DNA of 64,000 bases from Ruditapes philippinarum (GCF_026571515.1 NW_026853973.1:434001-498000), one strand, 5' to 3'; shown: positions 3,801-50,700, counted from the stretch's first letter. Numbers and translations: made by a program. The notes: generated by a model from the sequence alone, not told the origin.

Positions 3801-6800
3801 TCCATGTAGTCTGGTCAGTATATTACCAGTATGTACATCCATGTAGTCTAGTCAGAATATAACAAGTTTGTACATTCATGTAGTCTGGTCAGTATATGAC
3901 CAGTCTGTACATCCATGTAGTCTGGTCAGAATATAGCCAGTCTGTACATCCATGTAGTCTGGTCAGAAAATAATCAGTCTGTGCATTCATGTAGTCTGGT
4001 CAGAAAATAACCAGTCTGTACATCCATGTAGTCTGGTCCGTATATAACCAGTTTGTACATTCATGTAGTCTGGTCCTTATATAACCAGTTTGTACATCCA
4101 TGTAGTCTAGTCAGAATATAACAAGTTTGTACATCCATGTAGTCTGGTCAGTATATGACCAGTCTGTACATCCATGTAGTCTGGTCAGAATATAGCTGGT
4201 CAGTACATCCATGTAGTCTGGTCAGTATGTAACTGGTCTGTACATCCATGTAGTCTGGTCAGTATATGACCAGTCTGTACATCCATGTAGTCTGGTCAGA
4301 AATAACCAGTCTGTACATCCATGTAGTCTGGTCAGAATATAGCTGGTCAGTACATCCATGTAGTCTGGTCAGTATGTAACTGGTCTGTACATCCATGTTG
4401 TCTGGTCAGTATATGACCAGTCTGTACATCCATGTAGTCTGGTCAGAAAATAACCAGTCTGTACATCCATGTAGTCTGGTCAGTGTATGACCAGTCTGTA
4501 CATCCATGTTATCTGGTCAGAATATAACTAGTCTGAACATCCATGTTACGCCTGGTCAGAATATAACTAGTCTGTACATTCATGTAGTCTAGTCAGAATA
4601 TAACATGTAGTCTGGTCAGTATATAACCAGTCTGTACATCCATGTAGTTTAGAATTTTTATTCTACAAGTTGCTCTTTTTCATATTTTGATTTTAAAATA
4701 ATTGAAATTTCCATGGGACAGTCCTGCACAGTGGAAGTCTATGATTACAAAAAATAAATTGTTAATTGGGCTTTTATATTAAACTCTTAAGATGATACCC
4801 AGTTTACCTCAACCCCCATTATAGTTTTGTTTTACTTAAAAAAGTTCAATTTGTATAGGAAATCAAAAAAAAAAATAGAATAGGATTACTGTTTGTTGGA
4901 GACTTTATTGTTACCAGTAATATTTACTTTGTATTTCAGAGTAATGCAGCTAGCATGGCATTTTCTGCCCAGGGTGGAATGTTCCCTCAACAACTTCAAG
5001 CTCTAGTCAATGTTAACCCAGGTGCTCAACTTACCCTTCAACAAACAGGTAATTTACAAATGATTGGGCATACACAATTTAGCTGGAATAAACATTTTGT
5101 AACCAACAGTTGAAGATAACAGTTAAAAATAACAACAAAAACATCAAAATAGTGTCAACATAATTCAACCATTTCTTTCATCAGATAAATTAACAGTTTA
5201 CAAAACTTATCAGAACATAAATGAGAATGTTTAGGAATGCCAGCAACAATACTTAAATTGGAAAAAAAAGCATTGTAAAATGTCTTAAGATGGAGAATTT
5301 CAGAGTAATCAAAAGGAACTTCTGGAACACATAATAAAAGAATAGCTTCTTTTGGTAGTCTTGTGCATCTAAGTAACATCAGGGCATTTCCTTTTATATA
5401 AAAATTCATTTTTAAAGAAAATTGACAAAAAATTTAATGCAGACAGACAATTAGAAATTTTATAATTCTCAGTTTAGGGAAAAACGTGTTTTTCATTGGG
5501 AATGCCTCTGTTTACCGGTAGTAGGTTATAAGAGGGTTATAAGGGAGAAAAGGTGTTATAACTATTGTAAAGTTGAGAATCATCTACAGATGTCTGACCC
5601 ATTGGATGATCCCAACCATTTTTTCATGTCATGTATTTAAATGCTCATTTTGTTTTGTTTCAGCCAATGGTCAGTATATATTGCAAGCATTAACCCCTAG
5701 TGGTCAAGGTCAGATGGTAAGCATGGGTCAGCAAATCATACAAGCCCAACCAGGACAAATACAACAAGTACAGGTATGCAATTCAATATGCTGCTCAGTA
5801 TATTTCAATTATAGTTCTTACAAGTGTCACTTTAAGTATGTTATGTTCATCCTACTCACCACTACACCAGCATTGTTGGTACAAATAAAACAACTTTAAC
5901 AATTAAATCTGCCAGTCATAGGAAGATACAATATGATGTCTTTTTGATATTATTTTTGTGTGTGCGTTTATCTAAAGGGGAAAAAACATGGAATAATTGT
6001 TCAAAACTTTGAAAGATTTCTGAGATGAGATGTTTATCTTGAATTTATTTACATTTAAATAGTAAAGAGCTGTATAACTGCTGCCTGTAGTTTGAAAAAT
6101 TGTTGTTTAAACTTTTTTTAAACTTTATGAAAGAATACTACAACAGTATGAAAGAAATATGTTTGTATTTCTTCTTAAGACAGTTGGGACATGCATGAAA
6201 TAAAATTTTCATGTTTGTTAAATAACAGAGATATAGCTTTATACCCATTAATAGTTACTGTGTATATGATAGTCACTGTGTATTTCACTATAATGTTCTG
6301 TTTTTAGGGACAAAATCTTCCTCAATTTGATGGTGTACATGATGAAAAACACACAGATACAACTGACACAGAGCACAGAGATACAGATACACTAAACACA
6401 GAGCAACCCTGTTCCTCACAAGACAGTGAGCCTAGCTGTTCTGGTGCTTGTGGTTGCTACAAGCAAGAAGTTGAGATTGAATTTGAAGCTTCCAAAGCAA
6501 TGTCAAAAAAGTTGGCGAGAGATATCAAAAGAAGTATAAAAAGCCGGGTACCTCAATTAGATGGAAACCATGACACAAGTTCATCAGATGATGATGATTA
6601 TGATGATGATGATGGGAATGATGATGATGATGAGAAAGAGGATGGTGAAGAAGAGGGGGAAGAAGAGGTAAAATATGTCACTATTGTGAATATTAGTACC
6701 CTACTGGTTTCACCATCTAGGGAACTTTAGGTTTGCTTTCTGGCCATCTGTGAGTTAGTCTGCTCATGCACAAAACTGGATCACATGATAACTCTTAAAG

Positions 6801-28495: not shown

Positions 28496-31120
28496 TTACC
28501 TATTTTCAACGACAAAGTTCGGGACCTGACTTGGTGGTTTTTTAATAGCAACATTCATTTTTCTCCAAAACAAGTCATGACCAGCGACGTCATTTTCCTC
28601 AACAAACTCGATGTATTTGTGCATTTCAAGCCATTTCCAAACACTGTTGGGTATTTTCTTCTTTTCAAGACCACCCTTAATGACAAGTATTAAGTAATTG
28701 CGATCACGCCGAAATATACCCGAATGTGCAAAACACTCAAACAGGAAAACATTTATGGGGTCCTCAATGTAATCATTGGTAAGTATGACAATGGCTTTCT
28801 CGCTGTCCTCTATTGCACTCTCATAAGATGTTATGAAAGGTCCTGGCTTACAATCTTCTTTCATACACATTTTATATTCATTTTGATTACCCGTTAATCT
28901 GTTTACAATTGTTTCAACAAACTCTTTTTGACTTTCGGCGCAAGCAATAAATGCTTTGTAAGTATGTATAGATTGATATTGTTTATTTTTCTTATTACAT
29001 GTATATGTACTAATGTATTGATTGAACTGGAACCAGAGTCGCCGACAAGTCCATCTCTTAAAATATATTATTACAGCTACAAAGATGAGGAAAAGAACAA
29101 CGCCAGTTACTATAAGTATTGTGTAAATATCATGACATTTAAAGGACATATGACTAACCTTCGATTCAAACTCATTTAATGACAAAGGTAAGTCATTTTC
29201 ATCAACAAAATTGTATGACTCAAATCCAATCATATTGTTTTTGTGCTTTAAAAGCCATTTAAAAAAATCTTCCCTGTTACACGCATATCTTAAAGTATTA
29301 TTACGAAGATCAATAGTAAATGTAGATTTACGTCGCTCAGATGCACTTGTAAGTTGATTTAGAAGTTTTTCGGGAAGGACTCCAATCGAGTTATATCTAA
29401 GATTTATATAAGACAAATTATGTAACCCCGTGGTATCAATTGTCCAAGTCTCTATATTATTCATGCTTAAATCAATTGCTTCTAAATTGACATTATTTGC
29501 AAGGAAATCTGGAGGCAAATATGTAATTCTATTTAGAGACATGTTTAAAATTTTAAGGTTACTAAGGTGATTCATGATATAACTTGTCTTATCGTCATGG
29601 TTCAAAGAATACCCTATGAAATTTCTATCTATAAGTAATGTTTCAACTGAAGGAAATGACAGAAAAAATGTTGGATTAATGTCATAACAATAATTTCTGG
29701 ACAAATCTAAATATTCTACTTGATTAAAAGGACCAATAGGTCCCTTCCATGAATAAAGTGTATTTCCTGACAAATCCAGATGCTTCAAATAATTATCATT
29801 TGGAAAAATCGGCAATTGCTCTAATTCAAACTTCATATTACAATCATTGAACAACAATAATTCTAGATGCCTTGGAAGTGTTGGAATAGGAAAAATTGGA
29901 AAAGATTCGGAAGAATTAAAAAAAGTACATATGTCAATTGAGTCACTTGCATTCCTCAAATATTCTGGCTTCATATAAGGACAATCGTTTACGTAAGTAA
30001 AACTGTTATTTACATGCGATGATTGCACTTCCATGCTTGGTCTATGTAACTTGTTCTGGAAGCTGCCATAAAATTCAGCCACGTTTTTCAGACATCCAAG
30101 TTGCAACAGATAAAGTCCGAATGAAAAAATATTGTCGTTTAAGCTAACCGTTTTCAGCGATGTTGGCAATAGAATTAATGCATTTGTTTCTATCATTTCA
30201 ATCCGATTACTGTCAATAACAAGCTCTACAAGAGATGTATTGTGCAAAAAACATATATCGTTCATCCGTATTTCTGTTCCTAACCCAAAAGTTGGATTTG
30301 CGTGTGAATAGTTTAATGATTTGATATTTGTAAATTGTAGACTATATGATATGTTACTCAGCAACGGAAATCCCATTTTAATGTTATATGAAATGTCCAA
30401 AACTTCTAGACTTCCAAGTTCTTTGAAAGTTTCGGCTGCAATTGTGTTGATGTCACAAAACGAAATATTCAGATATATAAGATGAACAAGGTTTCTGAAA
30501 GATTCTTCTGATAAGCGATTGAATGAGCAATATCCATTAAATCCAGATACAGAAAGAAACTTTAAACTAGTTAGATTCAAAAATCCTTTGTGAAATGGAG
30601 CACCTGGAATTCCATCTATATACATTGTTTCAAGACCATTACTGCCAACAAAATCTGGATAAAATCTACGAGCTGTCTGCTGTTTGGTGTTTCCGTTCAA
30701 CTTTAGTGTTTTTAGCTTTGGTGGAAGCATGAATTTGTATCCATCTACAAAAATGTCTATATCGTTAAAACTAAGGTCCAGATGGTCAAGATTATGGAAC
30801 AATGCAAATATCCCTTCATCAAGATGCGTAATTGCATTCCTTGTTAAAATAAGAACACTTAAAAATTCACAACCTGTCAGATTTGATCTAAAAAGGTTCG
30901 GTATATCGAAACCCGTCGCTTCAAGTGATATTATATTGCTGTTTCTGACATAGGAACAAATTTCACTCAAATCTGTTCCTGTTCTATTGTTACACGTCAT
31001 TGAAATAGACAGGTCTACTGGTGAACATTCACAAGATCTGTTCGGTCCACATTCTTTTATGCCCGAGCAACACCCATAACGTATCATGGTCAATAATAAC
31101 AAAAAACGTTCCATTGTCAC
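28496..31120 (-). CDS. Toll-like receptor (single cysteine cluster type), intronless, 874 aa
   Basis: Signal peptide, Cys-rich LRRNT, many LxxLxLSxN repeats, LRRCT-like region, TM helix ILIVTGVVLFLIFVAVIIYF, TIR domain (YKAFIAC, KPG BB-loop, LFWRKM box 3). Confidence 0.95.
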   Translation of the reverse strand: MTMERFLLLLTMIRYGCCSGIKECGPNRSCECSPVDLSISMTCNNRTGTDLSEICSYVRNSNIISLEATGFDIPNLFRSNLTGCEFLSVLILTRNAITHLDEGIFALFHNLDHLDLSFNDIDIFVDGYKFMLPPKLKTLKLNGNTKQQTARRFYPDFVGSNGLETMYIDGIPGAPFHKGFLNLTSLKFLSVSGFNGYCSFNRLSEESFRNLVHLIYLNISFCDINTIAAETFKELGSLEVLDISYNIKMGFPLLSNISYSLQFTNIKSLNYSHANPTFGLGTEIRMNDICFLHNTSLVELVIDSNRIEMIETNALILLPTSLKTVSLNDNIFSFGLYLLQLGCLKNVAEFYGSFQNKLHRPSMEVQSSHVNNSFTYVNDCPYMKPEYLRNASDSIDICTFFNSSESFPIFPIPTLPRHLELLLFNDCNMKFELEQLPIFPNDNYLKHLDLSGNTLYSWKGPIGPFNQVEYLDLSRNYCYDINPTFFLSFPSVETLLIDRNFIGYSLNHDDKTSYIMNHLSNLKILNMSLNRITYLPPDFLANNVNLEAIDLSMNNIETWTIDTTGLHNLSYINLRYNSIGVLPEKLLNQLTSASERRKSTFTIDLRNNTLRYACNREDFFKWLLKHKNNMIGFESYNFVDENDLPLSLNEFESKVSHMSFKCHDIYTILIVTGVVLFLIFVAVIIYFKRWTCRRLWFQFNQYISTYTCNKKNKQYQSIHTYKAFIACAESQKEFVETIVNRLTGNQNEYKMCMKEDCKPGPFITSYESAIEDSEKAIVILTNDYIEDPINVFLFECFAHSGIFRRDRNYLILVIKGGLEKKKIPNSVWKWLEMHKYIEFVEENDVAGHDLFWRKMNVAIKKPPSQVPNFVVENR

Positions 31121-31334
31121 TATGCATCAATCAAGATGAAAACGTTATTTTAAATTATCAAACCTTTTAAACAATTTGTGTACTCATCAACGGTCGGTCT
31201 TCAGACAATTGTATGACAAGAAGTTGACTGAAATGATTATCTAATAATATCTTATCAATGTCATGCAGTTGTGATAGTGTTTGATACAAGGGACAATCTT
31301 AAATTAGCACGCAAATGTCATAGGCATTTTATAT

Positions 31335-31550: not shown

Positions 31551-32376
31551 AAATTTCATAGATATTTAAGGGATTTAATCTAAATTTATTTAACATGTAT
31601 ATTCAGAGTGACACAGATAAATAATAATAAAGTAATTCTTGCTTTTGACCAACACACAATAGATTGTTCCACTTAGCATTTTCTGTCTTCTTTACAACTG
31701 GCCCTCCGCACAATGTTCTTAATACGTTTTGAAAGCGTTTAATATGTGTCTCTTATTTCCCAGTCCATTGCAGCGAATACATGATCCAAATCGTTTCAGC
31801 TCATTCCTAAGAATATTCCCATTAGTACAAAACGTAGTATCAATTGGTCAGTATAGAAAGAAAACGGGGCTAAATAATCAAAGTTTAAATCTACTACATG
31901 TAATGTATTTTGTAGCATGAGCTTTGAAACAGGTACTGTGATCAAATATTTGATTTTAATAAGAAACATTATAAATGTCATGTCGGCTAAAGAGCTATAG
32001 ATTACACATTACATTACATTTGAATATATTACATTGCATTTGAATACTATTTTTTGCAATCGAATCACTATTACTAAATGCGAAATGCTGTAATGAACTT
32101 CCTGGGTTTTATGGTGTCCATAGTGATGTGCAATCAAGGTCAGATTTTAAAACATTTAAGATAATGACCTTTCTCATGTATAATTTATAACTTTGGCGTT
32201 GCATAATGATAATTTTTATCAAATTACGTTCAAACACGTCATGCATTTAATCAAAATTTCTCATACTGAAATTGATATAGTGTACCATATCATTAATATC
32301 TATGATGTATGTTTACTTTTCACACGCAAATTCTTCTTATCAGCTTGCAAGCTTCTTGATTATATCACAATTTACT

Positions 32377-35300
32377 AAAACAACAACAACAACAACAACA
32401 ACAATTTATTTCAGCATTAAGTAATATACATTTACTTTTAGCCTACAATAATATAATCATGTGTAGTGATAGGTCATATAATGATTACAGTTAGTGTTAT
32501 TATTTAAACAAAGGTGCTTTTGATTAGTTACACGAGATTCTTGGTTCATTTTAAATAGATGATTACTACTGTTCTAATTCTGTTCTCCGTTTGTTAGCAA
32601 AATATAGATATTTAGATAAATTGATAATTTCTTTCTTGTTTTGAGACATCATTAACTTATCTTTTTGCAATGTTGGCCATGTAAAATAATAAGGCTTCAA
32701 AAATTTGTGTCTTAAATCTATATATATCGGGCAAGTAAGTAGAAAATGGTACTCATTTTCAATGAGTAAAGAACGACAAAATTTGCAAGTTCTTTCTAAT
32801 CTTGGGATATTATAGTATCTTCCCCTCTCAATTTCAAGATTGTGTGATGATAGACGAAATCTACTAAGAGCAATTTTGAAACGTCTTTCTAAACTGTAAT
32901 AATCAAGATAAGGTTCGATCGAAAATGAATATTTTGTCCTACAATATGTTAAAAGTCTTTGAGAGTTATTTATTTCTGAAAACCAGGTTTGATGATATTG
33001 GTCTAATATTCTTTGTTTTATAAATTCAAAAACAGGAATATGTTGATATTTATGTAAATCCTTCCATATATCTGAAAGACCCAGTCTGTTTAATATTGTT
33101 TTAATTTGATATGCCCAGTTTTGGCCATTATAAGTTATATTGTTATCTGCATCTAGTTTTAGCATATTATACATTTGTTTTATTAGTTTGTTGTCTTCTA
33201 ATTTTTGAATTTTTAACCAATACCTAATCATGTTTATTTGTCTTACAATTTTCATTGGTTCTCTACCAAGTTCTCCATATAATCCTGTCAGATTTGTTGA
33301 TATATTAACAACTAGGATTTTTTCTTGCAAAATTTAGTGTGAATCTTTTCAATATCACTACCTTCAATATTTCCCCATACCTCCGAACAGTAATTAAGAA
33401 TTGATGCTACTAATGAATCAAATAATTAACATTTTTCACTAGTTTTGAATTCATATTGATGAAGAATAGCAAACAATCTATAAAGTGCTTTCGATGCATG
33501 TTCTGCTATGCTTTTTGTGTTCGTGACCAGTTTCCATTTTTAAAAAGGTATATTCCCAAATATTTAAAAGACGTTACTATTTCAAGTTTTTTGCCATAAA
33601 GATGAAAATCAAAATGTGTAGGTCTGCCTCTTTCGAAAATCATAACTTTGGTTATATCTATGTTTATTTTAAGTCCAAAGGTATTACAGTATATTTCGAT
33701 GTCCTTAAGCATGCTTTGTAAGGTGTCGGGATTTGTAGCAAATAATCAGCATATAAAATCAAAAATAGACTAAGCTCATTTAAGGTGAAAATTCCATCAA
33801 GGTCTGCATTTATATTACTCATTAGATCATTTACGAACATCATGAACAATAGAGGAGAACTGGGGTCTCCCTGCTTAACGCCTTGATGAGAGTTTATAAC
33901 ATCATTATGTACTACCCCATTATATTTAATAGATGCTCGTACTACAGTGTACATTGCTTTTATAGCTTTTACCATTTTAGTACTCACATTTTCTGTTATA
34001 AGTTTTTGCCAAAGAAAAGAACGATTAATTCTGTCGAAACATTTTTCATAATCAATAAATATGGAGTACAGTTTTTTACCCGAATATATGACTTTTGAAA
34101 TAATTGAGTGTAAAAGGAATATACAATCAACTGTGCTCTTACCCTTTTGGAAGCCAAATTGACTATTTACAAGTTTTTCGTGTTTTTCAGTCCATATTGT
34201 TAGCCGATTAAGTAGAACCTGAGAATAAATCTTAGATAAAATATTGTTAAGTGTTATACCACGGTAATTTTTTGCTAGTTTTAGGTCACCCCCTTTAAAT
34301 ATTGGAAAAATATATCCTTCTCCCCAGATTTCCGGGTATTGTCCATTTTTAAATATTGACAAAAGAAAAGGAGAAATTACACTGTATGAAGATTTAATAA
34401 TTTTTGCCGACACACCGTCCGGTCCGGTAGCTTTAAAATAATTTTGTTTAAATACAGCTTTATAAATTTCATTTTCAGATATCGGCGAATCTAAATCTTC
34501 ATCATGTATATTTTCAAATGTTTCATCATTAACAGAGTAAGTTTCCTCAACATTTTCATCAAACAATGTAGAAAAATGTTCATGAAGATTTTCTATTCCT
34601 ATATCATTATTTTTGGTGTTCTTTTTAAAACATTTTTTGATAAATTTCCAAAATTTTCTGGGCTCGATGCATACAATATTTTCAAGCTTTTTACCTTCTT
34701 GTAATTTATGCTTATATTTTGCCTTTGATTTAATCTTATTGTATTTAGTGCGCATTTTTACAAAATTATGTCTGTTTTCTTGATTATTGTTTTTAACAAA
34801 TAAATTTCTAGCTTTTTTGAACTCCCTTTTTATGGAATAGCATTCGTCATCAAACCATTTTGGTTTATTTAAATGATGTCTTATATTTACATTTGAAAAA
34901 GATATATTTTTACCGAATATTTCCATGGCATTTTTATATAAAATGTCAGTTAAACAAATAACCCGGTCATTTACAGAATTTGAACGACTATTATCAGTCT
35001 TAAACTTATTTACATCATAATGTCAATTAAATTTCCAGTTCTGCTATTTAAATCCCCTGTTACGTATGTTTTGCCAATTTCATTATATTTTTCTATCCCT
35101 TTTTCAATTTCCTCATAAAAATCAAAATCTTTATCGTAAAAAAATCTTTGAACAAATAGGTGGAATGTAAACAAGACAAAAATATACATCTTCAAAAAAG
35201 TAAAACATATCATGATTAATTTTCAACCAAATAATTCCAGATTGATTACTTTCTGCAATAGATATCTTAGAGTAAAGTTCGTCACAGAAGTAAACTGACA

Positions 35301-35902
35301 ACCCGCCACTGTATCTTCCTTTCTTTTTTTCCTGTAGATTTATTTCCGTGTAAATGAAAAGAACTATATCCATTAATTTCTAAGTTAATTGTATGGGATT
35401 TACTTATCCATGTTTCACTGAGAAGAAGTATGTAACTTAACGTAATTAATGAATTCTTCGTCTTGTAATTTGCGAATCAGACCGTTTACATTCCACGATA
35501 TGAATCGAAGCTCCTGTTTGGCCTAACTAGAAAGTTCATGAAAAGGCCCACTATCTCCATCTCGAACTAGTAATCGGGCTCCTGCCCACTTAACAGATTT
35601 CCCAGCTGCTTTCTCTCGTTCTAGAACTGGAAACAATTCTTTCCGTTTTGCGAAGAATTGCTTTGGTTTGTTGAACTCCCAATTCCCCTGTCCATGGCCT
35701 TCAATACGTGGTATTTGCTCTGCGCAGTGGTTCGAATTAATTCGCGTGTTTGGGGTGTTGAAATTTTTGCAAACAATCGGGCGTATTCCAGACGCTTTCT
35801 TTTGCCCTATTCTATGAGCACGAGCAATATCAATGGAGTCTTTAATGTTCAAGGCAGTATCTATTAAATTCAACACAAGTGCTTCACAATCCTCCTTTTC
35901 AG
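32377..35902 (-). mobile_element. 5'-truncated, frameshifted non-LTR retrotransposon (CR1/L2 group): ORF1 fragment, APE endonuclease, RT, C-terminal Zn-knuckle
   Basis: ORF1-like IARAHRIG..RPIV; APE motifs GRYSGG and GDLNSRTG; RT motifs NYRGITL, QFGFQKGKST, GVKQGDPSSPLLF, LYAD; RLSSHNLEIERGRY..C..C..ENEYHFLLTC; AATAAA plus (TTG)n tail at ~32378-32410; possible 6-bp TSD TTTACT (32371-32376, 35903-35908). Confidence 0.92.
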
Positions 35903-37308
35903 TTTACTCACTCTAATGATTATGAATTTTTCTGTACTAGCAAATGCTGTTGCGATAGTCTTATTTTGAGAAAAAAATTATTATATAATTATCTCTTAAA
36001 ATTCTCAGCTATATCACTGACTTGCAAAACCAAATTTATATTCATATTATCATGCCTGCCAATAAATAAGATTTATTGAAACCGCCAAATCGGATCATCA
36101 AGGCTATCATCAATAATAACCTCGGACTTAATAAGGATTGAAAGTAGTTCTGCCACGTTGTTCTAAATTTGAGGGTGTAATCTTTGATATTGTATGACGA
36201 ATGTATATATCCCAAAGAAATAAATACATTCCAAAGAAAATAAAGCGCATTTTGGTAAAATAATGATTATACATATGTCTGACAATCATAATCGATTTAA
36301 ACATGCTTACTGATGTACAATTACAACTATCAATATTGCATTTTATTACAAAATTTATAAAGTCTAACTTAAAAACTGCGACAGTCCGAAGTAAAAACAA
36401 GTACGTCTAATAGGGACACCTACATGTAGAATAGAAATTGTCCATCAATATCAATATGCTCATAATTTAATGTCTATGTTTACAAAATGGTCTCTTTTCT
36501 TAGCTACAAGAAATTATTATGTCATTGTTATGCAAGCATTACTAACATTTCTATGCACTGAAAACTTAGAACTAAAGCGTACTCGTCCTATCACAGTTAA
36601 ACACGAGTACTACGGACGTAATGAACTTTCTGTGCCTTAACGCTTCCCCTTTAATTTCAATTTTCACAACTACGCAGATCTAAACGACTCTTTTCAAAGT
36701 TTGCAGTGCACATAACCTCTCTTGTGATTTTAAAAGTCGCTAAAAATATCACGGTGTTTGTTTGCGTTTGTGGCCACAACTCACAAGATAGCCCCCTCCT
36801 TAAAAAGCTCAGTTCATTGTTACAATGTATTAAAGAAACACATAACTCTGATAACAACTGTGTGAGATAGGAATATTATCCAGGCAACATTTATAGTTAA
36901 CATGTCATCTGATGTTCATATACATTGTATATACAAATTTTATAGATGTCAGAAAGCGAAAGAATTTCGTATGTTACGACGAGCACTGGCTGCTTTACAA
37001 ACAAATAACGAAATTTATATAAAAAAGTAATTAGATAATTACATATAGAACAGATGTGAAATCTCTATTGGCAGTTCAGATAGCCTAAATGTTGTACATA
37101 TAAATAGCTTTGACATGGAAGATAGGTCTATAAAATATACAACACAATTTTGCACATCACAGTAATTACATACATGTATACATATTCAGTATTTATATAT
37201 GGCAAATAAAATCTTAGTTAAGTATAACACATATTGATTTTCCTCACTCTATTTTGTATTTTTAAGAGCTCGTCGATAGTGATATTTTCTAATGCAGTTT
37301 TGTTTCTT

Positions 37309-40300
37309 TTAAACTGGTAAAGTATCTTCGCAAGATGATTTAGATGATTCTGGGTCCGTGTCGTTTGATTCTAGCCAAGATCTTGCGTAGTCATCGGCAT
37401 TTGTTTCTGCACGATATTCATCTGAAATTACAGCAGACGAGATACTAACAACGTAAACATTGCCAAAAAGAAAAAAAGGAAAAAAAAGGAAAAGAAAGGA
37501 AGACAAATATTACGCATGCTTTAATCTTTTAAGTCTTTCAACTAAAGTTTTGTTAAAGATTTGCTTTCACGAATGTTTGGATAAATGACTCTATTATTTC
37601 AATGTTGTTTTCTTCTATGTTATATAATTATACATTTTGAATGTTTAAATTGAATTACATATACATCTATAGAATGTTTTTATTTATAAAGATCATTGAA
37701 AATTAATATCCATTTCTTTACCAGGAATGCAGCATTATATTTAATTAAAGAAATTAAATAGTAAAGAAGAACTTTTAAAGTATCTGTGACAGTTGATCTT
37801 TAACATTGAGTCTAATAGACATTTGTCTCCGGCCGCTGAATCAAACATCATGTAGTCGGTCACGTGCGCAGAAACTGGTAATCTAGGGAAGCTTGTTAGG
37901 TGGGTTGACTTAAAATTTGTTAAGATCGACGTAAAAAACAAACAAGCAAACAATATCCAGAATACAAACTAATCGTTACTGCATAAAGATAAACAGAACG
38001 AAAATACCTAATCCCAATAACACTTCTGCTCATACAGACAACACGAGAACTTACCTAAAGATGTCGTGCTAAATGAATCCTACAAGACAAACAAATGAAC
38101 CTATAGTTACAGAAAAATATTGCAATAATATGTGATATCTAAACTGTCTTAAATCAGTGGTATGTTGACTGATTATCCATTTCATTGTCACGACAGTGAA
38201 TACTTGACAAATGTTTCGTCTAGCATACGAAAACATCAAAATAGCAAAAAGTTATAGTTTTGCTTTCTTTTCAAAGAAATAACAACAATCGTACAGTTAA
38301 ATATTTAAAAAAAACATTATGCCTCAGAAATTCACATTATTGATATAGAAGTTTTAGTAATGGACTAAATATATAATGTATATACTTTTAGACAAATGAA
38401 AACTACTGCTTTATTGTGTCGTAAAGGTAGTGAAATGTAAACAAAGTTATTATTTTGACTTTCATACAAAGTACTAATTCGCTAAATATACCATTTGTAA
38501 ACAGAGAAAAATAAGTAAAAAATCTTTATGTATATGGCAAATGAGTTTATTTTGGAAACTATGACAAGATACCAAAGCTAGAACGTTTCCATTAATATTA
38601 TCTTATGCAGACACTTTCTTTCATTACCTTTTCTGCACTGACAAAGCTAACAATTTCAAGGGTCTGTTGCAGTCCTGCCCCGAATGTTTCTAAAATCGTC
38701 TCTATAGAAACAAGAAGGAAGTGTCGGTTATCATCCTCAAAATGACATACATACATCCCGACGCAGTGTAACATATCATCTTCGTCTGCTATGAAAACAG
38801 CCGCCCCACCTTCTTCCTGTTTTATAAGTCCATATTCAGGCGTTCTAAGACGAATAAGACCCCGCTTTTTATCTAGCATGATTTTAGCTTTTGCTGTTCG
38901 TGTTTGATTCCCAAAAACATATACTTGTGTTTCCTCCCAGGAATTCCTGTTATCGTAGTATGGAAAATTTATAGGGCTTATCCCTGCAACACAAAAAGTA
39001 CGTTTTTATTTGTTGTGTTTTCAATAAATCAATATTTGGAAAGGTCATATTAATATGTGTTTAATGTATGTCAGTAAAGGTAAGAATAAAAAAAATATTC
39101 AGGAAAAAAAGAAAAACATACATTTCCTTATATAAATGATAAATATAAATATTGCAATCGCTTCTCTTATAGGAAAATATTCTTTTGATAATAAATATTT
39201 TATCACTCAAAAACAGTTCCTATACACCAAAACCCCACACCAGTGTTTAATGGGCGATAAACAATACAAAGACCGATATTATTTCTAAAATATAATATAG
39301 TAACACCGCTTATATTCATTTACCAGACACTAATGTTAAAATGAATACAAATGAAGAAATTATATAACCTGCAAAAATAAACCTCCCTCCTTTCATATAA
39401 CTGTCTACCTCTTCCATGATACTTTGATTGATCTGTATTAAAGCTACCATCGTGGGTTTATCGCTTGTACCTTTTGTTTCTACGTTACCGATAGAACGAC
39501 CTTCAAGCCTTGACCCTGACCTATATAGCTGCAAAACGTTGGCATCATTGACGATGTTCTGATAGTTTAGTCTTTGACAGACGACATGACTGGCTGTGAC
39601 GAAGTAACATCTTTCATTCATTTTAACAAAAGGTCCAACTACACCTAGCATACAAGGATAAATGCCAAGTTTTGGAATTACTGAACTTCCCATTCTAAAT
39701 TGACGAACCATACCTATAATACATTAATAATTCGAGTTATTCAGGAGTCGCATTTAGGACATGCTTCGAATATATCTATATAAAATATTATAAAATATGA
39801 AACACTTTCAGATCTAGACAAAAATGTTTTGTTTACAATACGGCATCATCTCTTAAATTCGGGGTCTAGCGGGGTTTTTTTTTAAACAAAAAAATCGTTC
39901 CACTCACACAACTATAGCTTTAAATCCTGAAATTTACTTATATTTCTTAAATGCGAGCTGGCTATCAATCTTACTCATGGAAGGTCGGTGGTTCCACAGA
40001 GTGGCCGCTCGTACCTGAAATAATATACGGAGGGGTACCTAAGTTCTTCATCTCTATAAGGCTGGCAAATCACCAGTGTCGGTGTTACAAAACAATTAAA
40101 CAATAAGACCTTATACTACCAGAGAATGATGCTACGGTATTATGGACGATCATAAAAAGATAACTTTTACCGTGAATGTTTTTGTCGGGAAACCAGCGAG
40201 AATAAGCACACATGTATGTTACATCGGCATGTTCATCCATACTCTCATTGTCATCAGAGAAGTACCTAAAAATAGAACAACTTAATACAAAACGTACATG

Positions 40301-40804
40301 TGAAAGAATGCCCGAACGCCAAACTCGAAATAATTGCATGCAATAATTACAGAATATAGTATATAAGATCAAAAATAGGCGGCATTCGATGAACACAGCC
40401 CCGCAGAATTGACATTGATAGATCTAGTTAGAACATACAAATCTCAGTTCTTAACAAATTTGTGTATAATCACTCAAATAAAGGTTTGAATGTGTACGGG
40501 CATTGTTGGAAGAACTATATTGTAAAGGTAATGCATGAAGTTATATCAATTTGAATGCACGGACAATCGACTAATTTTATGCGGATTACGTATAAAACAA
40601 TGGTTGGATGCAGTTTTTGTTTCACAGGAAACAAATTAACAAAATCAACGTGTTATTTTAGGCTTTTCATCCACAGAATTGTTCTTGTTTTCCTTCTTTA
40701 CTTTATGTCTTATATTATATACTTATAATAGATATATATGGTTTATGAAAGTGGATAGCACTGATACTGAATCGGTCATCATTCATGTCTTTTAATACTT
40801 ACAT
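37309..40804 (-). CDS. Spliced ~311-aa trypsin-fold (NAL1/trypsin_2-like) serine protease homolog, catalytically degenerate; exons ending at 40803, then 40265-40171, 39713-39369, 38983-38628, 38079-38055, 37421-37309
   Basis: Phase-compatible GT/AG exons join several track ORFs. Motifs GVVGPFV..YFVTASHVV, MVALIQI, VYVFGNQT, EEGGAAVF, CVGM, SIETIL are collinear with the family pattern GxLGxFV..LTxxHV..DxALI..VxKxGxTTG..GDSGSxV..IG..TPIxxIL. An alternative donor at 39324 and the last exon are less certain. Confidence 0.72.
39950..40090 (+). mobile_element. SINE body fragment in the protease-homolog intron
   Basis: GGAAGGTCGGTGGTTCCAC...CCGCTCGTACCTGAAATAAT matches the SINE family. Confidence 0.7.
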
Positions 40805-40935
40805 GATCTTATCAAAGATTTAAACGTCCCGGGATATGTTATCTAATACTAATACAATCAATACACATAGTATCCACTTTAATCTACAAAATTTGAATCA
40901 TCACAAAGTTCAGTTGAACGAAACATTCTGTACAA

Positions 40936-40945
40936 TTTCACTTTC
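40936..40945 (-). promoter_or_regulatory. IRF-E/ISRE-like motif GAAAGTGAAA upstream of the putative first exon of the protease homolog
   Basis: Exact GAAANNGAAA tandem core ~135 nt upstream of the first donor; short, so chance is not excluded. Confidence 0.3.
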
Positions 40946-43746
40946 AATGTGGACGAGTGACTTGACAATGGTCAAATTTTAATTTTATCGAAATAATAAT
41001 TATTTTACAGTAATGAGACTACATTGCAATCTTTGATGATTTGATTATGACAATCATAGGTACATCAACCCTTATAAAAATAAATGTATTAAATAAACTT
41101 GTCTATCCTTTAATCTAAATAAAACCATTTATCATTATTAGGCAAAATTTCAAAATTTGTAGCGGCTGATTAATGCGAACACTGCAGGTCATCGGATGAC
41201 TTTGGTCTGACCTGGTTGCATGGGTATATGTAGTTGCCACCAGTAGTATATTGTCGTAACATAATATGTCCCCATTTAGAAACCATTCACAGGCATATAA
41301 TACGATTTTTGACAGATACATTTATCATACATTGTAAATTAGGTAAGCAGCTACTATTAAAACAAATTAGTTGAATTAACCTTTTGATTTGCTATATTAT
41401 ATAAACAAATATAACAATATATAAACACAACATACTAGTATATAAATAATTATACTACCCATCAGACATTAGTCCGATTGTCAATCAAATTCTTTTCAGC
41501 AACATTCCATCTTCATAAGTGACGCTCTTGTTACAGTAATCAAATTGAACTTGTTACAGTAATTAAATTGAACCACTTCATATCAAAATCTGAATATAAG
41601 TCTGGTATATTAAAGGTATAATTAATGAAAACAGTTTACACTATTTACACAGTATCACTTTTTTGAAATTAAACACTCCAACTATGATAATAACAAATAC
41701 AATTACTATATAACAAAGACACACAATCAGTTATTTAGTGCTTTAAAAACATATACATTATAATTTGGACCCATATCAAGAATATTGCAACTACTTAAAA
41801 AATCCATTGATTTTATATTATACTATTGACTACTTTACATATAAGGACGCCAATAGATAAAATGATGATTATTTTTAAAAATCTTTTAACGTGACGAAAA
41901 CATGCGGTTCTCATCATTATGTGAAGACAACAGATTTTATCATAGATTATGTAATACAAAAACAAACCTTCAAGACAGAAACAAATCAAAACAATGTTTG
42001 TAAAACTTGGAACGTTTTCATAACTTTATTTATAAATTTGGTCTCCTTGTTTCAATAATAATACGATCCAGTGCATATTGATTATTTTGATTGATCTGTA
42101 TTGAAAAAGGTATCTAAAACGACATGGATGTGCATTTATCATGATTTCAAATTATAAACGATTGATTGTGTTGATTAATTGTGTAACAGACAGATACTAG
42201 TGTGTTTTTTGTTAATGAAATTTTATCAATGTCATTAACAATATATCCGATTAAAGTAAAACTCTTGACTCAAATAGTAAATTGATTTTATATTTTGTTA
42301 ATAAATATCTAAACTTAAAAATAAATAATAAATTATTTGACACGGTAAAGGATTAAGTGTAAAGCACACGTATGTGTATGTGATGTAGTAAAATGATGGC
42401 ACCATGCGATCTGTGCAGACCAAGATCAACCCACTAATCCGTGCCGTTTGATCATGGTCTGCACTGTTCGCTATTCAGACAGGGCTTCTTTTAAATTTAT
42501 TTTTAAATTTTCCTTTAAATAGTTAGCGGTTTTGTACAGATTGGAATTTGACATGTCCATTTTAGATGTTTTGTATGTTATTTTATTTATTTTTTCGTTT
42601 CCACCAACTCGAACCATCCGTAAATTATGAGATCGTGATGTAATGTGGATAAAAATCTTTTTTCAAATATGTTTTCTTTTTCCATATCTAATATAGGGTT
42701 ATCATATAAACAACACACTTCTGATGAACTCAATATTTCAAATAGAATTTTAAATAATTTATTAGTATTGTTCTCTTCAAGTATTTGTGCACGTGATGTC
42801 CATTATCATATTGTGCGAGTTAGAATAATATTCTGCTGTTTGGGTTTTTTTCCATATTCATGTCACTCTAAATCACATTGTGTTCATTAAACTGAAAAGT
42901 GGTTATTACTTTATTAACAATAAATTACGCATTTTGTTGTTGTCAATGTCATCCCTTTCATTTACAAGTGTTAAGAAAGTCATCTTGTAAAACACACAAG
43001 TGTATTTCCAATTGTATCTTTGTTTCACTTTCACATTCTTCTTTCAAAATTGTATCACAACTTCATTATACACTGTGTGTTATTACTTTGAGTTGTATAT
43101 AGTGGTAAATTGATGGTAAGAGAAAAATTATTTGATACACGAAAAACAATAGTCACAAGTCCGCCTCCATAAGCCGATTATTTGTGTTGTCTATGTGCAT
43201 TCCAGTTATCAGTTATATTTATATATTTATCGAAACAAATATTTACGTCCACATGACGTTTTTTCTATATCTTTATAATCATTGACAAGTATTGACAATT
43301 GAAAAGACGATAGTATCAACATAACACATGTAATGACAATAAAACGGGGTTGAACTCAATATGGATCTTAAAAATTGAGCATCTGTAAAAAAAATGTCAA
43401 TTTCAGTTGATTCAGATGTGTGCTATAAGCACCAATGTGAACGCGAAAGTAAGTCAATCAGAGGGAGAGAGTTTTCATCTTTTTTTTAAAAAGCATTTTT
43501 ATAAAATTCAAAGCCTTTTTGAAGTCCCTAATCTAGTGGGTGTGTTTTGAGGCTTTAGATTTTGTATCACGTTTACCTCTAAAAAGTGCTTGACCTGGAG
43601 TCGTCAACAATCTTTACAGGAATGATAATATCCTTCCGTCGTTGGTTAACATGTATATGAAAACAGACTTAAAAAAGACGAAATAGCCGCTACAATTATT
43701 TCATCTATTTTCTCATTGATTGTCATGCAGGTAAATCTCTTTATGT

Positions 43747-43889
43747 NNNNNNNNNNNNNNNNNNNNNNNNNNNNNNNNNNNNNNNNNNNNNNNNNNNNNN
43801 NNNNNNNNNNNNNNNNNNNNNNNNNNNNNNNNNNNNNNNNNNNNNNNNNNNNNNNNNNNNNNNNNNNNNNNNNNNNNNNNNNNNNNNNN
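43747..43889. other. Assembly gap (143 N)
   Basis: Run of N. Confidence 1.
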
Positions 43890-46820: not shown

Positions 46821-47726
46821 TTAAGCAACCATTTGAGCCCGCACAGTTCCTTTAATTTGTGCTCTACAAATAGCACACTTAGAAAGTGCAGGGATACACT
46901 GAGAACAACAGGCCAAGTGGCCACACGGTAATGTAATTATACTGGCAATAGCATCAAAGCATATTTTACAAGTTACTGGCTCTTTCAATTGTCTGTTAGC
47001 TTCTTCAATATCCCTATATGTCTCGGACTCACTATCGTCTGATTCTGCTTCTAACTCTCGCTTTTCTTTTATTTCTTCTACAACTTTAACAAGATCAACA
47101 GCAGAAAAATTTCTTAATATATCTTTCTTTATCAAAGATTTAATAGCCGTATTGATGATATCCTCATTTGAACAATACAGTCTAGCTACACTCACAGCAT
47201 CCTCGTTCCTTTTCATAGCCAGTTGTACGGTGTCAACTACACCGTCAGTACCACAGGCACCTTCATCAGAATATTCATCACTTTCATCCATAATCCAATT
47301 AACATATCCTTTTCCTTTACATTGAATGACATGTCCGCACGTGGGGCTTGCCAAAACGTGTTGTTTCCAAGGGCACGCCCCTTCAGGCCAATCCTTAAGT
47401 CCTATTCCGCAATAAAAACATCTCACAGAGTCACACACTCCCGTATATGCAAATCCGGCTTCTGATAATTGATCAATTGTTGGTACTTTCATGGTTCCAA
47501 GCCAGTTTTTATAAGACAACTTTCTTGATGCTAAACAGGCATATTGTTTGTGTTTAGGCTTATCAGTTATAATTCCAAGGATTTCACATTGAGATTTATG
47601 TCCTGCCTTTTGAAGCTGTGCATTATTTTTGAAACCTGCAGCAGTATGATCTGTTAAACCACTTTCGTTCAACTGTAAGCGTTTACGAAAATAATCCTTA
47701 ACTCTCGAAAAATCAGTTGTTGCCAT
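46821..47726 (-). CDS. Inhibitor-of-apoptosis (IAP/BIRC) family protein: one BIR, UBA-like domain, C3HC4 RING; intronless, 301 aa
   Basis: BIR with AGFAYTG and CX2CX16HX6C (CFYC...H...C); helical UBA-like middle; C-terminal CKICFD..LPCGHLACCSQC..CAICR RING; TATA-like TATATA ~65 nt upstream of the ATG. Confidence 0.95.
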   Translation of the reverse strand: MATTDFSRVKDYFRKRLQLNESGLTDHTAAGFKNNAQLQKAGHKSQCEILGIITDKPKHKQYACLASRKLSYKNWLGTMKVPTIDQLSEAGFAYTGVCDSVRCFYCGIGLKDWPEGACPWKQHVLASPTCGHVIQCKGKGYVNWIMDESDEYSDEGACGTDGVVDTVQLAMKRNEDAVSVARLYCSNEDIINTAIKSLIKKDILRNFSAVDLVKVVEEIKEKRELEAESDDSESETYRDIEEANRQLKEPVTCKICFDAIASIITLPCGHLACCSQCIPALSKCAICRAQIKGTVRAQMVA

Positions 47727-50700
47727 TAAATGAATATATCTGTTACTTACAACCTCTGTAAAGTTATGACGTATTGTAAAATGTTCAACCTATATATCGT
47801 TCTGTACTTTTAGAATTTTATGTAAGGGATCCCAAAGAGAATTGCGAAATATGTAAACAATACTCACTGTTTATCTTAATTTCGAGCTATTTTTAAACTT
47901 CAATTTTCCAATGAAATGATACATATATAACGGTGTTAAAGGGATTGTTATCAATACTTTTTCGTAGCTGAAATTTTTCTTGAAATTTATATTTTAAATC
48001 AGATAAATTCTTTTTATAAAACATTTTCGGATATATCAAAGTTATATTATGCTCAAATTTAATATTTGAAAAAAAAAAAACCCAAAAAACTTATAATTAC
48101 TTAACAGTCTCTTTTGAAATATAAAATAAACATTTTTGCAATACACATTGACAATATACGTTACGTTTTAAACTCTACACACTGGCAGAATCGACCAAAT
48201 TAAGTTGACATAATGAATGCATCTTCCCAAACACAGTTTATACATTAATGTATCCAAATAAGACAAATTTAGGAAGAATTTACCGGATGTAAATAAATTT
48301 CTGCTATAAAATTATTTTACCCAAAGATGAGCATAGTGTATCTTTAGGCAAAAGTGTCGTGTTGTCATGAACCTAGTAGTAAAATCAAAATTTGTAATTC
48401 AGTTTTAAAGTACTGTTCAATAATAAAGTGTCTTAAAAATAAACCATATGGCATAATGCGAGAATACATTTTAAATATATACGCAGTACGTTATAAGGTT
48501 TTCTTAATACAGTTATAAATACATTATGAAAACTACAGTTTATTTATATTTAACCACGTACTCCATAGTTTGTACTTGTTTTCGGACACATTCTTGAACT
48601 TATTACAATGATAACACATTTGTTGTAAACAAGTTCGGGTTTATTTTCATTAAAAACTAACTTTTCATTACTAGTTTCTTTATTTGTCTTGGTTTGTAAG
48701 AAAAACTGCAGTTTTTTAATTATATCATCCTGTTTAAAAGTAAATAACCCCTTTTTTGCAGAAAAAAAGAACGATTACGTTTTATTATGAAATGCATTGA
48801 CACCACAGTAGTTATAATGTATGTAATAACTTTCTATTACATGCAAATATGATCAATGAAACATGGCTTAAAATAGATCAAACGTATTTAACTTTATCAT
48901 GACATTACATTGATTTGTGTTGATAAAGTGCGTGCCTGATATATTTAGACACCTCATCAATACATATTGAAATAACACGAAGATAATAGAATATTTAAAC
49001 TCTTACTTGTTTGAAAACATCAAATTGATAAACTTTGTTAAACTGATAAATTTTGAATCGACTAGAATTTATAAATATTAATATCTCTCTTATAGAACAG
49101 AACAGAATAGAACAAATATTTAATTTGAAAAAATAAAAAACCCACAAAAAACCAACATATTCTTGGTATGACATGGAAAAATACATGCATTTGACTCAAA
49201 ACATTTGCGACTTTTTGTTATAGATATGACCCTTGGCATATATTACTGCGCGCGGCATGAACTTGAGAAGTTCTTTACAGGTTTTTTGTTTCATTTTGAA
49301 ATTTAAACAAGTTAAATGTTGATGTTGCACATCAAAGACGCCGCCAAATGATGTGAACAGTCAATCAGCATTGAAAATCGTTCCCTATTACACTATCAAT
49401 ACAATGATTCTATTACACTTTAAACAGTCTTTGTTTTGGGAATCTCATAAATAGGATATTATATTTGTGTAGGTTCATTATTGAATGTATTGAACTCCTT
49501 GAATAAAATAATATAATGCCTGCCAGAGGCATGAAATAATTCATATAAAAATCAGTATTGAACCTATATTCATTCAATATGCTCTATAGAAATATCGTCA
49601 GAAAGGCACCCGTGTAGAATGTGTTTGATTACGAAAAGTACATGGATATCTGCACATATTCTAAAAATGTGACAAAATTCGTAGAATTTCACAGAATTAT
49701 TTTTCATGATTTGATGACGTTATGAATGAGAGTGAGTGCATATCGTTACGCGGCAAAAATGTAAAAAAAATGACTTAAATGACATGAAATAGAAGTCGAT
49801 TTTTTTTTGGTTTTGTATGTAAGATCAGGTGTATGTCTATGCTTATTGAGGGTCCATCCACACGTTAAGACACAAAAAACGGCTTTCGTTGTCGAGTACG
49901 GAAATAGGACATGTCACCAGTAAGGCCCTTAAAGACTCAATTTTGCAGCACCCGTTAAATGATCTTAGAGTATTAGCAAATGAAATGAATTTTTGAGCCT
50001 GTTAACACCTAAACGTACAGTAAACAGTGACAATAATGAAGAGGGAAGTTTGTGCCAGCAAGGAACGCCGCCGTTCAAGTCTTCTTTTCGGAATAGGAGT
50101 TCACGCACCCTAGTACCAATCCTCGTTGTCACTGCCACGTTTAAGTTCCTCTTCCCTAGGTTTCAGTCAGGAAATCGGCAGCTAACCTCATACATACTTA
50201 GTTGTGCCACCTTAAATGTTAGATGAGTTGTAGAAAGCCAATTTTGCTATCTTATACGTTACAGTGGATCTTCAATCGTCTGCCGATGCCCCGTGTGCTC
50301 GTAACGATGGGAAAAGAGAAGTGAAAACCAATTAGTGGCTACACCACTCGTGAAAATATTACATCTGATGTACATTCTGTGAAATTTATTTCGATCAAAT
50401 ATCCCCTCTCTATATAGATATGCGTACTATTTATAACAATGTGTAATATTTGTTCAGGGTTGTACTTGTTAATCTTAAACGGTACAAAGAACGTCTGATA
50501 AGAGGTAAAGAATTTGTTTCAATTTAATTTAATTCAAACGTTTACTGTATAGAACAATATTTGCATCATTTATTTAATTGAACTGCATATGTGCAATATA
50601 CATAAAGATTGTTTATAGTTCGTGCACAAATGTACTACCAATCTAAAAAAATACTTATAAGTTTCATCTCAAGAAACTTTAATGTGATCTTCAAAATTCT

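Follow-up and report, generated by a model that had tools for sequence, protein, structure and literature searches.

A stretch of 64,000 nucleotides from Ruditapes philippinarum (GCF_026571515.1, NW_026853973.1:434001-498000), referred to here at its full length as the window and providing all positions given below, carries on its minus strand the spliced gene LOC132738577, whose product appears to be a free-standing, catalytically dead relative of the NAL1 protease. In rice, NAL1 is a gene that affects yield, and its product is a self-compartmentalising protease. By protease-domain homology, the 311-amino-acid product of LOC132738577 (P0001) belongs to an expanded, undescribed NAL1-like family of bivalves; judged by its alignment to active relatives, however, it does not qualify as an active S1-type protease, with methionine and glycine at the positions of the catalytic acid and nucleophile. 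The gene likely arose via truncation of a clam gene in which a pseudoprotease is fused to an active protease. We tentatively propose that the protein is a cytosolic non-catalytic regulator which binds active NAL1-type paralogs and lowers their activity, or which retains their substrates.

Predicted fold and catalytic centre of P0001

The six exons of LOC132738577, with AG/GT ends, splice into a single open frame whose 311 residues are identical in every letter to RefSeq XP_060582074.1 (R. philippinarum LOC132738577 isoform X2, 'uncharacterized'). A reading of the window from its sequence alone (the sequence-only reading) had arrived at the same in-frame six-exon gene with a 25-nucleotide microexon and had called it hidden; because its product is identical to the RefSeq protein, the gene is annotated rather than hidden, with at least four isoforms in RefSeq. 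A protein search with the largest exon recovered only P0001 among 149 candidates, and the P0001 cluster has five members.

An AlphaFold2 model of P0001, built from a 30-row alignment (mean predicted local distance difference test (pLDDT) 63, predicted template modelling score (pTM) 0.67, second barrel mostly at 82-91), indicates a chymotrypsin-fold (PA clan) domain with two predicted six-stranded β-barrels; the order of the catalytic motifs is kept in the A4 family alignment. The sequence-only reading had anticipated a NAL1-like trypsin fold, and a Foldseek search with the model indeed returned rice NAL1 chains at all of ranks 1-7 (best E 1.8e-6). In VIA-align, where the match covers approximately residues 35-261, the L5 protease (Z 13.7, root-mean-square deviation (rmsd) 3.2, 173 residues aligned) scored slightly above NAL1 (Z 12.6, rmsd 3.6, 195 aligned); 106 of 48,161 chains reached Z≥8, and the top 50 rows were all trypsin-fold. 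The family profile A4, which is dominated by active members, matched nine PDB sequences at E≤1, all of them NAL1. In the Atlas, P0001 adjoins a mostly mollusc cluster of 238 members (score 0.96), 16% of which carry Nal1_C. As a single sequence, P0001 matched Pfam Trypsin only weakly (E 0.09-0.17, below the cut-off) and gave no match to Pfam Nal1_C at E≤1 and none in the PDB at E≤10.

In the A4 alignment to intact-triad relatives, His75 (in TASH, 39588-39586) faces the catalytic histidine, Met121 (in TMVALI, 39450-39448) faces the acid, and EEGG (38816-38805) faces GDSG, with Gly206 at the nucleophile position. The retained histidine and both replacements had been read correctly before, down to the exact coordinates of the motifs. 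Four full dead domains are available for comparison, and their nucleophile position is glycine in every case, their acid position M, L, I and I, and their catalytic histidine kept in three, with leucine in P0019; the motif opening exon 4 (residues 148-162) is invariant across the four.

The absence of a signal peptide was also borne out, as the highest 11-residue hydropathy within the first 45 residues is 0.34 in isoforms X1 and X2, which indicates no hydrophobic leader by a hydropathy scan rather than a dedicated predictor; the same scan gave no membrane segment in P0001. Only about 35 low-confidence residues precede the protease domain, and the ATP-binding domain of NAL1 is not present. With no ATP-binding domain, triad or Pfam match, P0001 stands outside the NAL1 family sensu stricto.

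Fusion relatives and the origin of the stand-alone gene

A search of 1.84 billion representatives gave 10 matches, the best being P0006, a 797-amino-acid 'uncharacterized' protein from Mercenaria LOC123532349. P0006 begins with an N-terminal dead domain, followed by a linker, two α/β modules, a protease domain (TCAH, Asp, GDSG) and a long C-terminal helix. Modelling of P0006 (pLDDT 83) showed a match of residues 21-241 to DegS (Z 14.3), and residues 387-746 superpose on NAL1 residues 90-449 (Z ~23, rmsd 4.4-4.9, 294 aligned), so that the latter segment is predicted to span the NAL1 ATP-binding and protease domains as set out in the rice study (PMC12012508). The same dead domain stands ahead of a NAL1-type module in P0019, a 769-amino-acid 'uncharacterized' protein from Ruditapes LOC132756836. 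The modules that follow the dead domain in P0006 and P0019 keep His, Asp or Glu, and GDSG.

A search with the P0006 core among 3878 candidate proteins of 438-1395 amino acids gave 29 matches (8 from Ruditapes, 9 from Mercenaria, 4 from Mya, 2 from Saccostrea, one each from Dreissena and Potamilus, and 4 others). GDSG is present in 28 of them, the remaining one being a fragment, and the eight Ruditapes paralogs with this motif are candidate targets in the same species. This protein-level count bears on the survey of triads among paralogs suggested by the sequence-only reading, whose view that the protein comes from a poorly described animal family agrees with both the Atlas mollusc cluster and this 29-protein bivalve family. 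The dead domain occurs in two of the 29, P0006 (itself in the profile) and P0019 (E 6e-51). A profile of the 28 active members found P0001 at E 5.8e-10 in a nine-protein set. N-terminal domains exceed the Pfam cut-off in five of the 28 relatives (CARD_2 in one, DUF4559 in two, RING in one, HEPN_DZIP3 with Ig in one); below the cut-off, Nal1_C appears in eight and Peptidase_S64 in three. The nearest Atlas clusters of the core are bacterial, cnidarian and plant. We found no description of animal NAL1-like proteases, of the pseudoprotease-protease fusion or of the stand-alone dead form in full-text literature searches that covered few subscription papers; supplements may hold alignments with animal members.

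The likely origin of LOC132738577 by truncation is reflected in its tail and in its exon borders. The 48-residue tail is acidic and serine-rich (13 D/E, 4 K/R, 9 S), as already described; however, residues 265-294 align to the linkers of both fusions, with 0 of 2000 shuffles as good in each case, and the tail is largely leftover linker. The sequence-only reading missed this, and with it the likelihood that P0001 is the front half that truncation left of a pseudoprotease fused to a protease. Gene-call fragments of P0019, apparently from unspliced DNA, break at residues 125, 245, 254 and 598/599. The first three breaks coincide with introns 3, 4 and 5 of LOC132738577, and the last exon of the latter is therefore homologous to the start of a 345-codon exon of the paralog; this exon encodes most of the NAL1 core, whereas its counterpart in LOC132738577 ends at 37 codons. 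The fourth break follows the G-x-F-P motif in the active domain, at approximately the position that intron 3 holds in the dead one, probably a shared phase-1 intron position, which suggests that the dead domain derived from an intron-bearing animal member of the family.

Beyond the linker, the window appears to hold no active module: tblastn with P0006 gave nothing past residue 281 at E<1, and a core profile run over 3605 six-frame pieces of the window found only the gene's own two large exons, which ranked first with the profile of active members. In the last exon, a short stretch in another frame resembles a frameshifted piece of the core; it was rejected as a look-alike, being equalled by 376 of 1990 control windows on the profile and by 578 of 1990 pairwise. 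In a tree of 38 domains (unrooted, with long branches and five fragment rows), a branch with support 98/90 separates the ten dead rows from all 28 active rows; given this split, a recent origin of the dead domain by tandem duplication of the active domain within the fusions is not supported. P0001 shares 53-54% identity with the two Mercenaria dead domains (54% with that of P0006), compared with 38% with that of P0019, and the dead lineage is therefore probably older than the split of Ruditapes and Mercenaria.

Several further observations concern the same family. The catalytic acid of the active bivalve members (P0006 and P0019-P0045) is Glu in 12 of 28 and Asp in 13, with three unscored by the pattern. 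Both residues occur in one gene, for which RefSeq P0019/P0047 have Glu and the near-identical fragment P0049 has Asp; among serine proteases of the chymotrypsin fold, His-Glu-Ser would not be a usual triad. A second group of dead-like fragments (Logan records P0013, P0014, P0015 and P0018) has DDGA or DVGA instead of the nucleophile motif, lies nearer to the active profile (E 2e-16 to 2e-23) and forms its own branch (98/90). The CARD-fused member (P0036 and P0051, LOC132750552) has a longer isoform with a 65-residue insert resembling, by eye, a P-loop remnant. An exon of LOC132738577 (P0002) and two exons of the fusion paralog (P0010, P0048) are each listed on a 1752-base contig, which may reflect coincidence or linkage in one sample; RefSeq places LOC132738577 and the fusion paralog on differently sized contigs.

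Exons, transcripts and neighbouring features

Transcript evidence came from four public runs aligned to 36600-43700: the Logan contig sets of runs X1 and X15 and the raw-read RNA runs X21 and X23 (run labels separate from the RefSeq isoform numbers). Runs X1 and X15 are labelled 'RNA?' and '?', neither being recorded as RNA; the removal of GT-AG introns in both is as expected of processed RNA. All five introns occur as GT-AG joints in the Logan contigs, four of them in both runs and intron 1 of the sequence-only reading in run X1 only. The splice junctions called for by that reading were therefore found in the contigs but not in raw reads, since no intron joint was seen in the reads sampled from X21 and X23 (approximately 4 and 6 in 100), where depth over the internal exons was at most ~1.6-fold per strand. 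In run X15, the internal exons reach depths of 290-570.

All exons are on the minus strand. The main first coding exon (41459..41469) starts isoform X1 (314 amino acids); its 5' untranslated part is unmapped, it reproduces P0004 and P0003, and its joint (40262/41456) skips 1193 nucleotides at depths of 24.5 in run X1 and 293.8 in run X15. The exon 1 of the sequence-only reading (40803..40804), which supplies the first two start-codon bases of isoform X2, is a minor alternative, its joint skipping 537 nucleotides in run X1 only, at depth 3.4. Exon 2 (40171..40265), supported by the spliced frame, the contig joints and the model, encodes an acidic N-terminal stretch of low model confidence. Exon 3 (39369..39713) encodes the first barrel with His75 and Met121, and exon 4 (38628..38983) the second barrel with EEGG. 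An additional exon within intron 2, for which nine in-frame AG..GT candidates exist, was ruled out, as the observed joint skips the whole 457 nucleotides. The 25-nucleotide microexon (38055..38079) encodes part of the linker common to the fusion proteins; both flanking joints were seen (depth 58.4 in run X1, 543.3 in run X15), and its omission reproduces RefSeq isoform X4. The last coding exon (37309..37421), homologous to the start of the large NAL1-core exon of LOC132756836, comprises 37 codons and ends with the stop codon at 37311-37309. The probable 3' untranslated region (UTR; 36600..37308) extends at least to the edge of the aligned stretch, with the first AATAAA/ATTAAA at 36655; a run X1 contig (36600-37328) spans it at depth 31, and run X15 has depth 0 there.

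The coverage of run X15 has two further peculiarities. Over 36600-37392, the last exon is apparently covered for about 28 bases only and the 3' UTR not at all, which may result either from filtering or from an allele whose 3' end differs. The long first intron (40277-41446) is covered at depth 75-119, as intron retention or another transcript, with a divergent haplotype showing 28 differences in a 575-base piece.

Relative to the window, exon contig pieces show 1 difference in 699 positions in run X15 and 1 in 463 in run X1 (the latter synonymous), compared with 47 in 2293 and 50 in 2222 in non-exon pieces (Fisher p 9e-5 and 1e-3, respectively). This contrast, which rests on 16 of 306 contig pieces, is suggestive of constraint. 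P0001 shares 94 of 115 residues with one further relative, and two metagenome scans for DNA of relatives gave 125 and 24 pattern matches, none of them a relative.

Among the neighbouring features, an inhibitor of apoptosis protein (IAP) gene with BIR and RING domains forms a long open frame (46821-47789) 5.4 kb upstream on the same strand; the Mercenaria family member P0029 carries the same Pfam RING type fused to a NAL1-like protease. A Toll-like receptor (TLR) with leucine-rich repeats and a TIR domain occupies a single long minus-strand frame (28496-31126; 876 amino acids stop to stop). Between it and LOC132738577 lies, also on the minus strand, an interrupted coding region of a long interspersed nuclear element (LINE) type (32569-35903), with a reverse transcriptase frame at 35022-33667, a second frame at 33333-32569 and a third at 35903-35526. 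Exon-like frames similar to the TFIIA large subunit are found on the plus strand at ~5500-6730 (Pfam E 0.27, below the cut-off). Short dispersed repeats that draw many partial reads lie at 42440-42482, 41120-41210 and 38314-38450, an assembly gap of 143 N lies at 43747-43889, and a repeat search of 32000-42000 gave short weak pairs only.

Possible roles and comparison with known systems

A regulatory role towards active NAL1-type paralogs is the reading we favour, held with slightly less than even confidence. In rice NAL1 trimers, the ATP-binding domain contacts the protease domain of the neighbour, and activity requires the hexamer (PMC12012508). Should the clam proteases assemble in the same way, a protease-like surface without an ATP-binding domain or catalytic centre would cap or poison their rings; alternatively, P0001 might compete with the fused dead domain for a ligand. 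In either case, the protein could act as a stand-alone decoy regulating active paralogs, as c-FLIP does with caspase-8, and the 'decoy or scaffold' of the sequence-only reading would gain a candidate target. Immune or cell-death signalling is a weaker suggestion for the pathway, drawn from the domains fused to five of 28 relatives, the TLR and IAP genes in the window and the analogy with bacterial trypsin-like peptidases carrying death-like domains (PMC8195603). A wider scheme can be envisaged, although we find it doubtful: NAL1-type cage proteases would form a cytosolic proteolytic switch of bivalves, parallel to caspases, and would carry swappable sensors (CARD, RING, HEPN/Ig, DUF4559), one of them an integrated dead copy, with LOC132738577 as a c-FLIP-like free brake; roughly half of the active members would use His-Glu-Ser.

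A number of points weigh against a regulatory role. Oligomers are documented for rice NAL1 and not for the clam family; the confidence of the P0001 model is moderate, and the active relatives in its alignment may bias it. The sole other stand-alone model, P0007, lies on a 66-kb contig and may be incomplete. The conservation seen in Mercenaria is mostly that of the fused form and therefore does not prove selection on the stand-alone one. The contrast between exon and non-exon pieces is weakened by the exclusion of the run X1 3' UTR piece (1 difference in 722), and the non-exon pieces may stem from repeats or other haplotypes. As for an immune setting, 23 of the 28 relatives have no recognisable immune domain above the cut-off, and the proximity of TLR and IAP genes carries little weight in the genome of a clam.

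Other explanations have to be weighed against the regulator proposal. The dead domain could be a bait or sensor, a mimic of the active protease that captures an inhibitor made by a pathogen or a ligand resembling a substrate. As an integrated decoy in the fusions, it would thereby activate the protease to which it is joined; the stand-alone protein would sequester the ligand or act as a signal in trans. Such a role would fit the position of the domain, which occupies the slot of CARD, RING, HEPN/Ig or DUF4559 in other members, the predicted counter-invader systems in which bacterial trypsin-like peptidases are joined to death-like adaptor domains (PMC8195603), and the identity between P0006 and P0019, which is 40% in the dead domains and 62% in the active ones, so that the dead domain changes faster or is swapped. 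Faster change would, however, be expected from lost catalytic constraint alone, and the few exon differences seen among Ruditapes contigs do not suggest diversifying selection; we regard a bait as unlikely. It is highly improbable that P0001 is an active enzyme with a relocated nucleophile, in which the histidine works with another Ser, Cys or Thr. Although His75 is kept in three of the four full dead domains and T72, S150, S162, T166, H220 and C221 are invariant in all four, the histidine is replaced by leucine in P0019, the oxyanion glycine position is Glu, Asn or Gly, and C221 is also conserved in active members and is therefore probably structural; the alignment alone disfavours such an enzyme.

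The remaining two alternatives concern the locus rather than the protein. LOC132738577 may be a truncated, still transcribed and drifting duplicate of a fusion gene with no function of its own, as its frame ends 37 codons into the paralog's core exon, genes of this family duplicate freely (8 from Ruditapes and 9 from Mercenaria among 29), a LINE-type reverse transcriptase lies 2.3 kb downstream and the two raw-read RNA runs gave almost no coverage. Against drift stand the intact splice sites, including those of the microexon, the depth of exon coverage in run X15 and the far fewer differences in exon than in non-exon pieces; moreover, the lack of a detectable core remnant downstream indicates an old truncation, and an identity of only 38% to the dead domain of the Ruditapes fusion means that the gene is not a recent copy of LOC132756836. 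We would not expect a mere duplicate on this evidence. Finally, the assembly and RefSeq may hold a truncated allele of a polymorphic locus whose other allele runs, in other clams, into an active NAL1 module, as in P0006. The coverage of the last exon in run X15 (a bin mean of 65 against a joint depth of 543, and depth 0 over 36600-37310), where run X1 covers both the exon and the 3' UTR, the divergent run X15 haplotype in intron 1 and the higher identity of P0001 to the Mercenaria P0006 dead domain than to its counterpart in Ruditapes P0019 would all agree with this. Filters in contig data leave holes, however; no fused protein with a P0001-like front was found among the five cluster members or in a 50%-cluster search, and the largest-exon search, which extended to longer proteins and gave P0001 alone among its 149 candidates, is a weak argument. 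We regard a polymorphic locus as decidedly unlikely.

If P0001 does regulate active paralogs, an intracellular protease pathway would be added to the immunity of a farmed clam, together with a new pairing of enzyme and pseudoenzyme, of which caspase-8 with c-FLIP and the JAK kinases are familiar examples. Should it prove to be drifting, the expanded family would still merit description. Within one species, a fusion and the free dead domain can be tested alongside an active paralog.

Rice NAL1 (PDB 7Y77, 8PMM and 8PMG; Pfam Nal1_C, PF25819), likewise trypsin-fold and without a signal peptide, is the best Foldseek match of both models. NAL1 combines ATP-binding and protease domains, as the fusion relatives are predicted to do (P0006 from residue 387), whereas P0001 lacks the ATP-binding domain, the Asp and the Ser and is 13-15% identical to it. 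The fused N-terminal dead copy, the coiled-coil tails and the swappable N-terminal domains do not appear in NAL1 as described in the accessible part of PMC12012508. The closest counterparts of P0001 are the venerid fusions LOC123532349 and LOC132756836, which have dead domains 54% and 38% identical to it and the linker in common; exon borders in the gene fragments of LOC132756836 are, where seen, as in LOC132738577. Both fusions continue into an intact-triad NAL1-type core and a coiled coil, whereas LOC132738577 stops.

In the Atlas, bacterial Nal1_C clusters lie close by, and bacterial trypsin-like peptidases with death-like adaptors (PMC8195603) likewise combine a trypsin-like effector with swappable adaptor domains, by analogy only. 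The tie to bacterial anti-phage systems drawn by the sequence-only reading found no support: P0001, P0006 and P0019 matched no PADLOC family at E≤1 in a 2023 library that may lack the family, and P0001 had no match in NCBIfam.

FAM111A is an intracellular animal trypsin-like protease; its protease domain (PDB 8S9K) reaches Z 11.3 to P0001, no higher than many unrelated trypsin folds, and its chain is absent from the PDB matches of the A4 profile. Secreted serine protease homologues, such as clip-domain homologues, haptoglobin and protein Z, are disulfide-bonded S1A proteins that retain the trypsin fold without its nucleophile. Haptoglobin and protein Z match the P0001 model at Z 10.4-10.8; however, P0001, which lacks a leader and comes from the NAL1-like clade, is not a secreted homologue. 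The short form of c-FLIP and the CARD-only proteins are dead or truncated paralogs of an oligomer-activated intracellular protease and restrain caspases. They rely on the caspase fold and death-fold recruitment, whereas P0001 retains the protease-fold domain itself, through which it may restrain its active paralogs.

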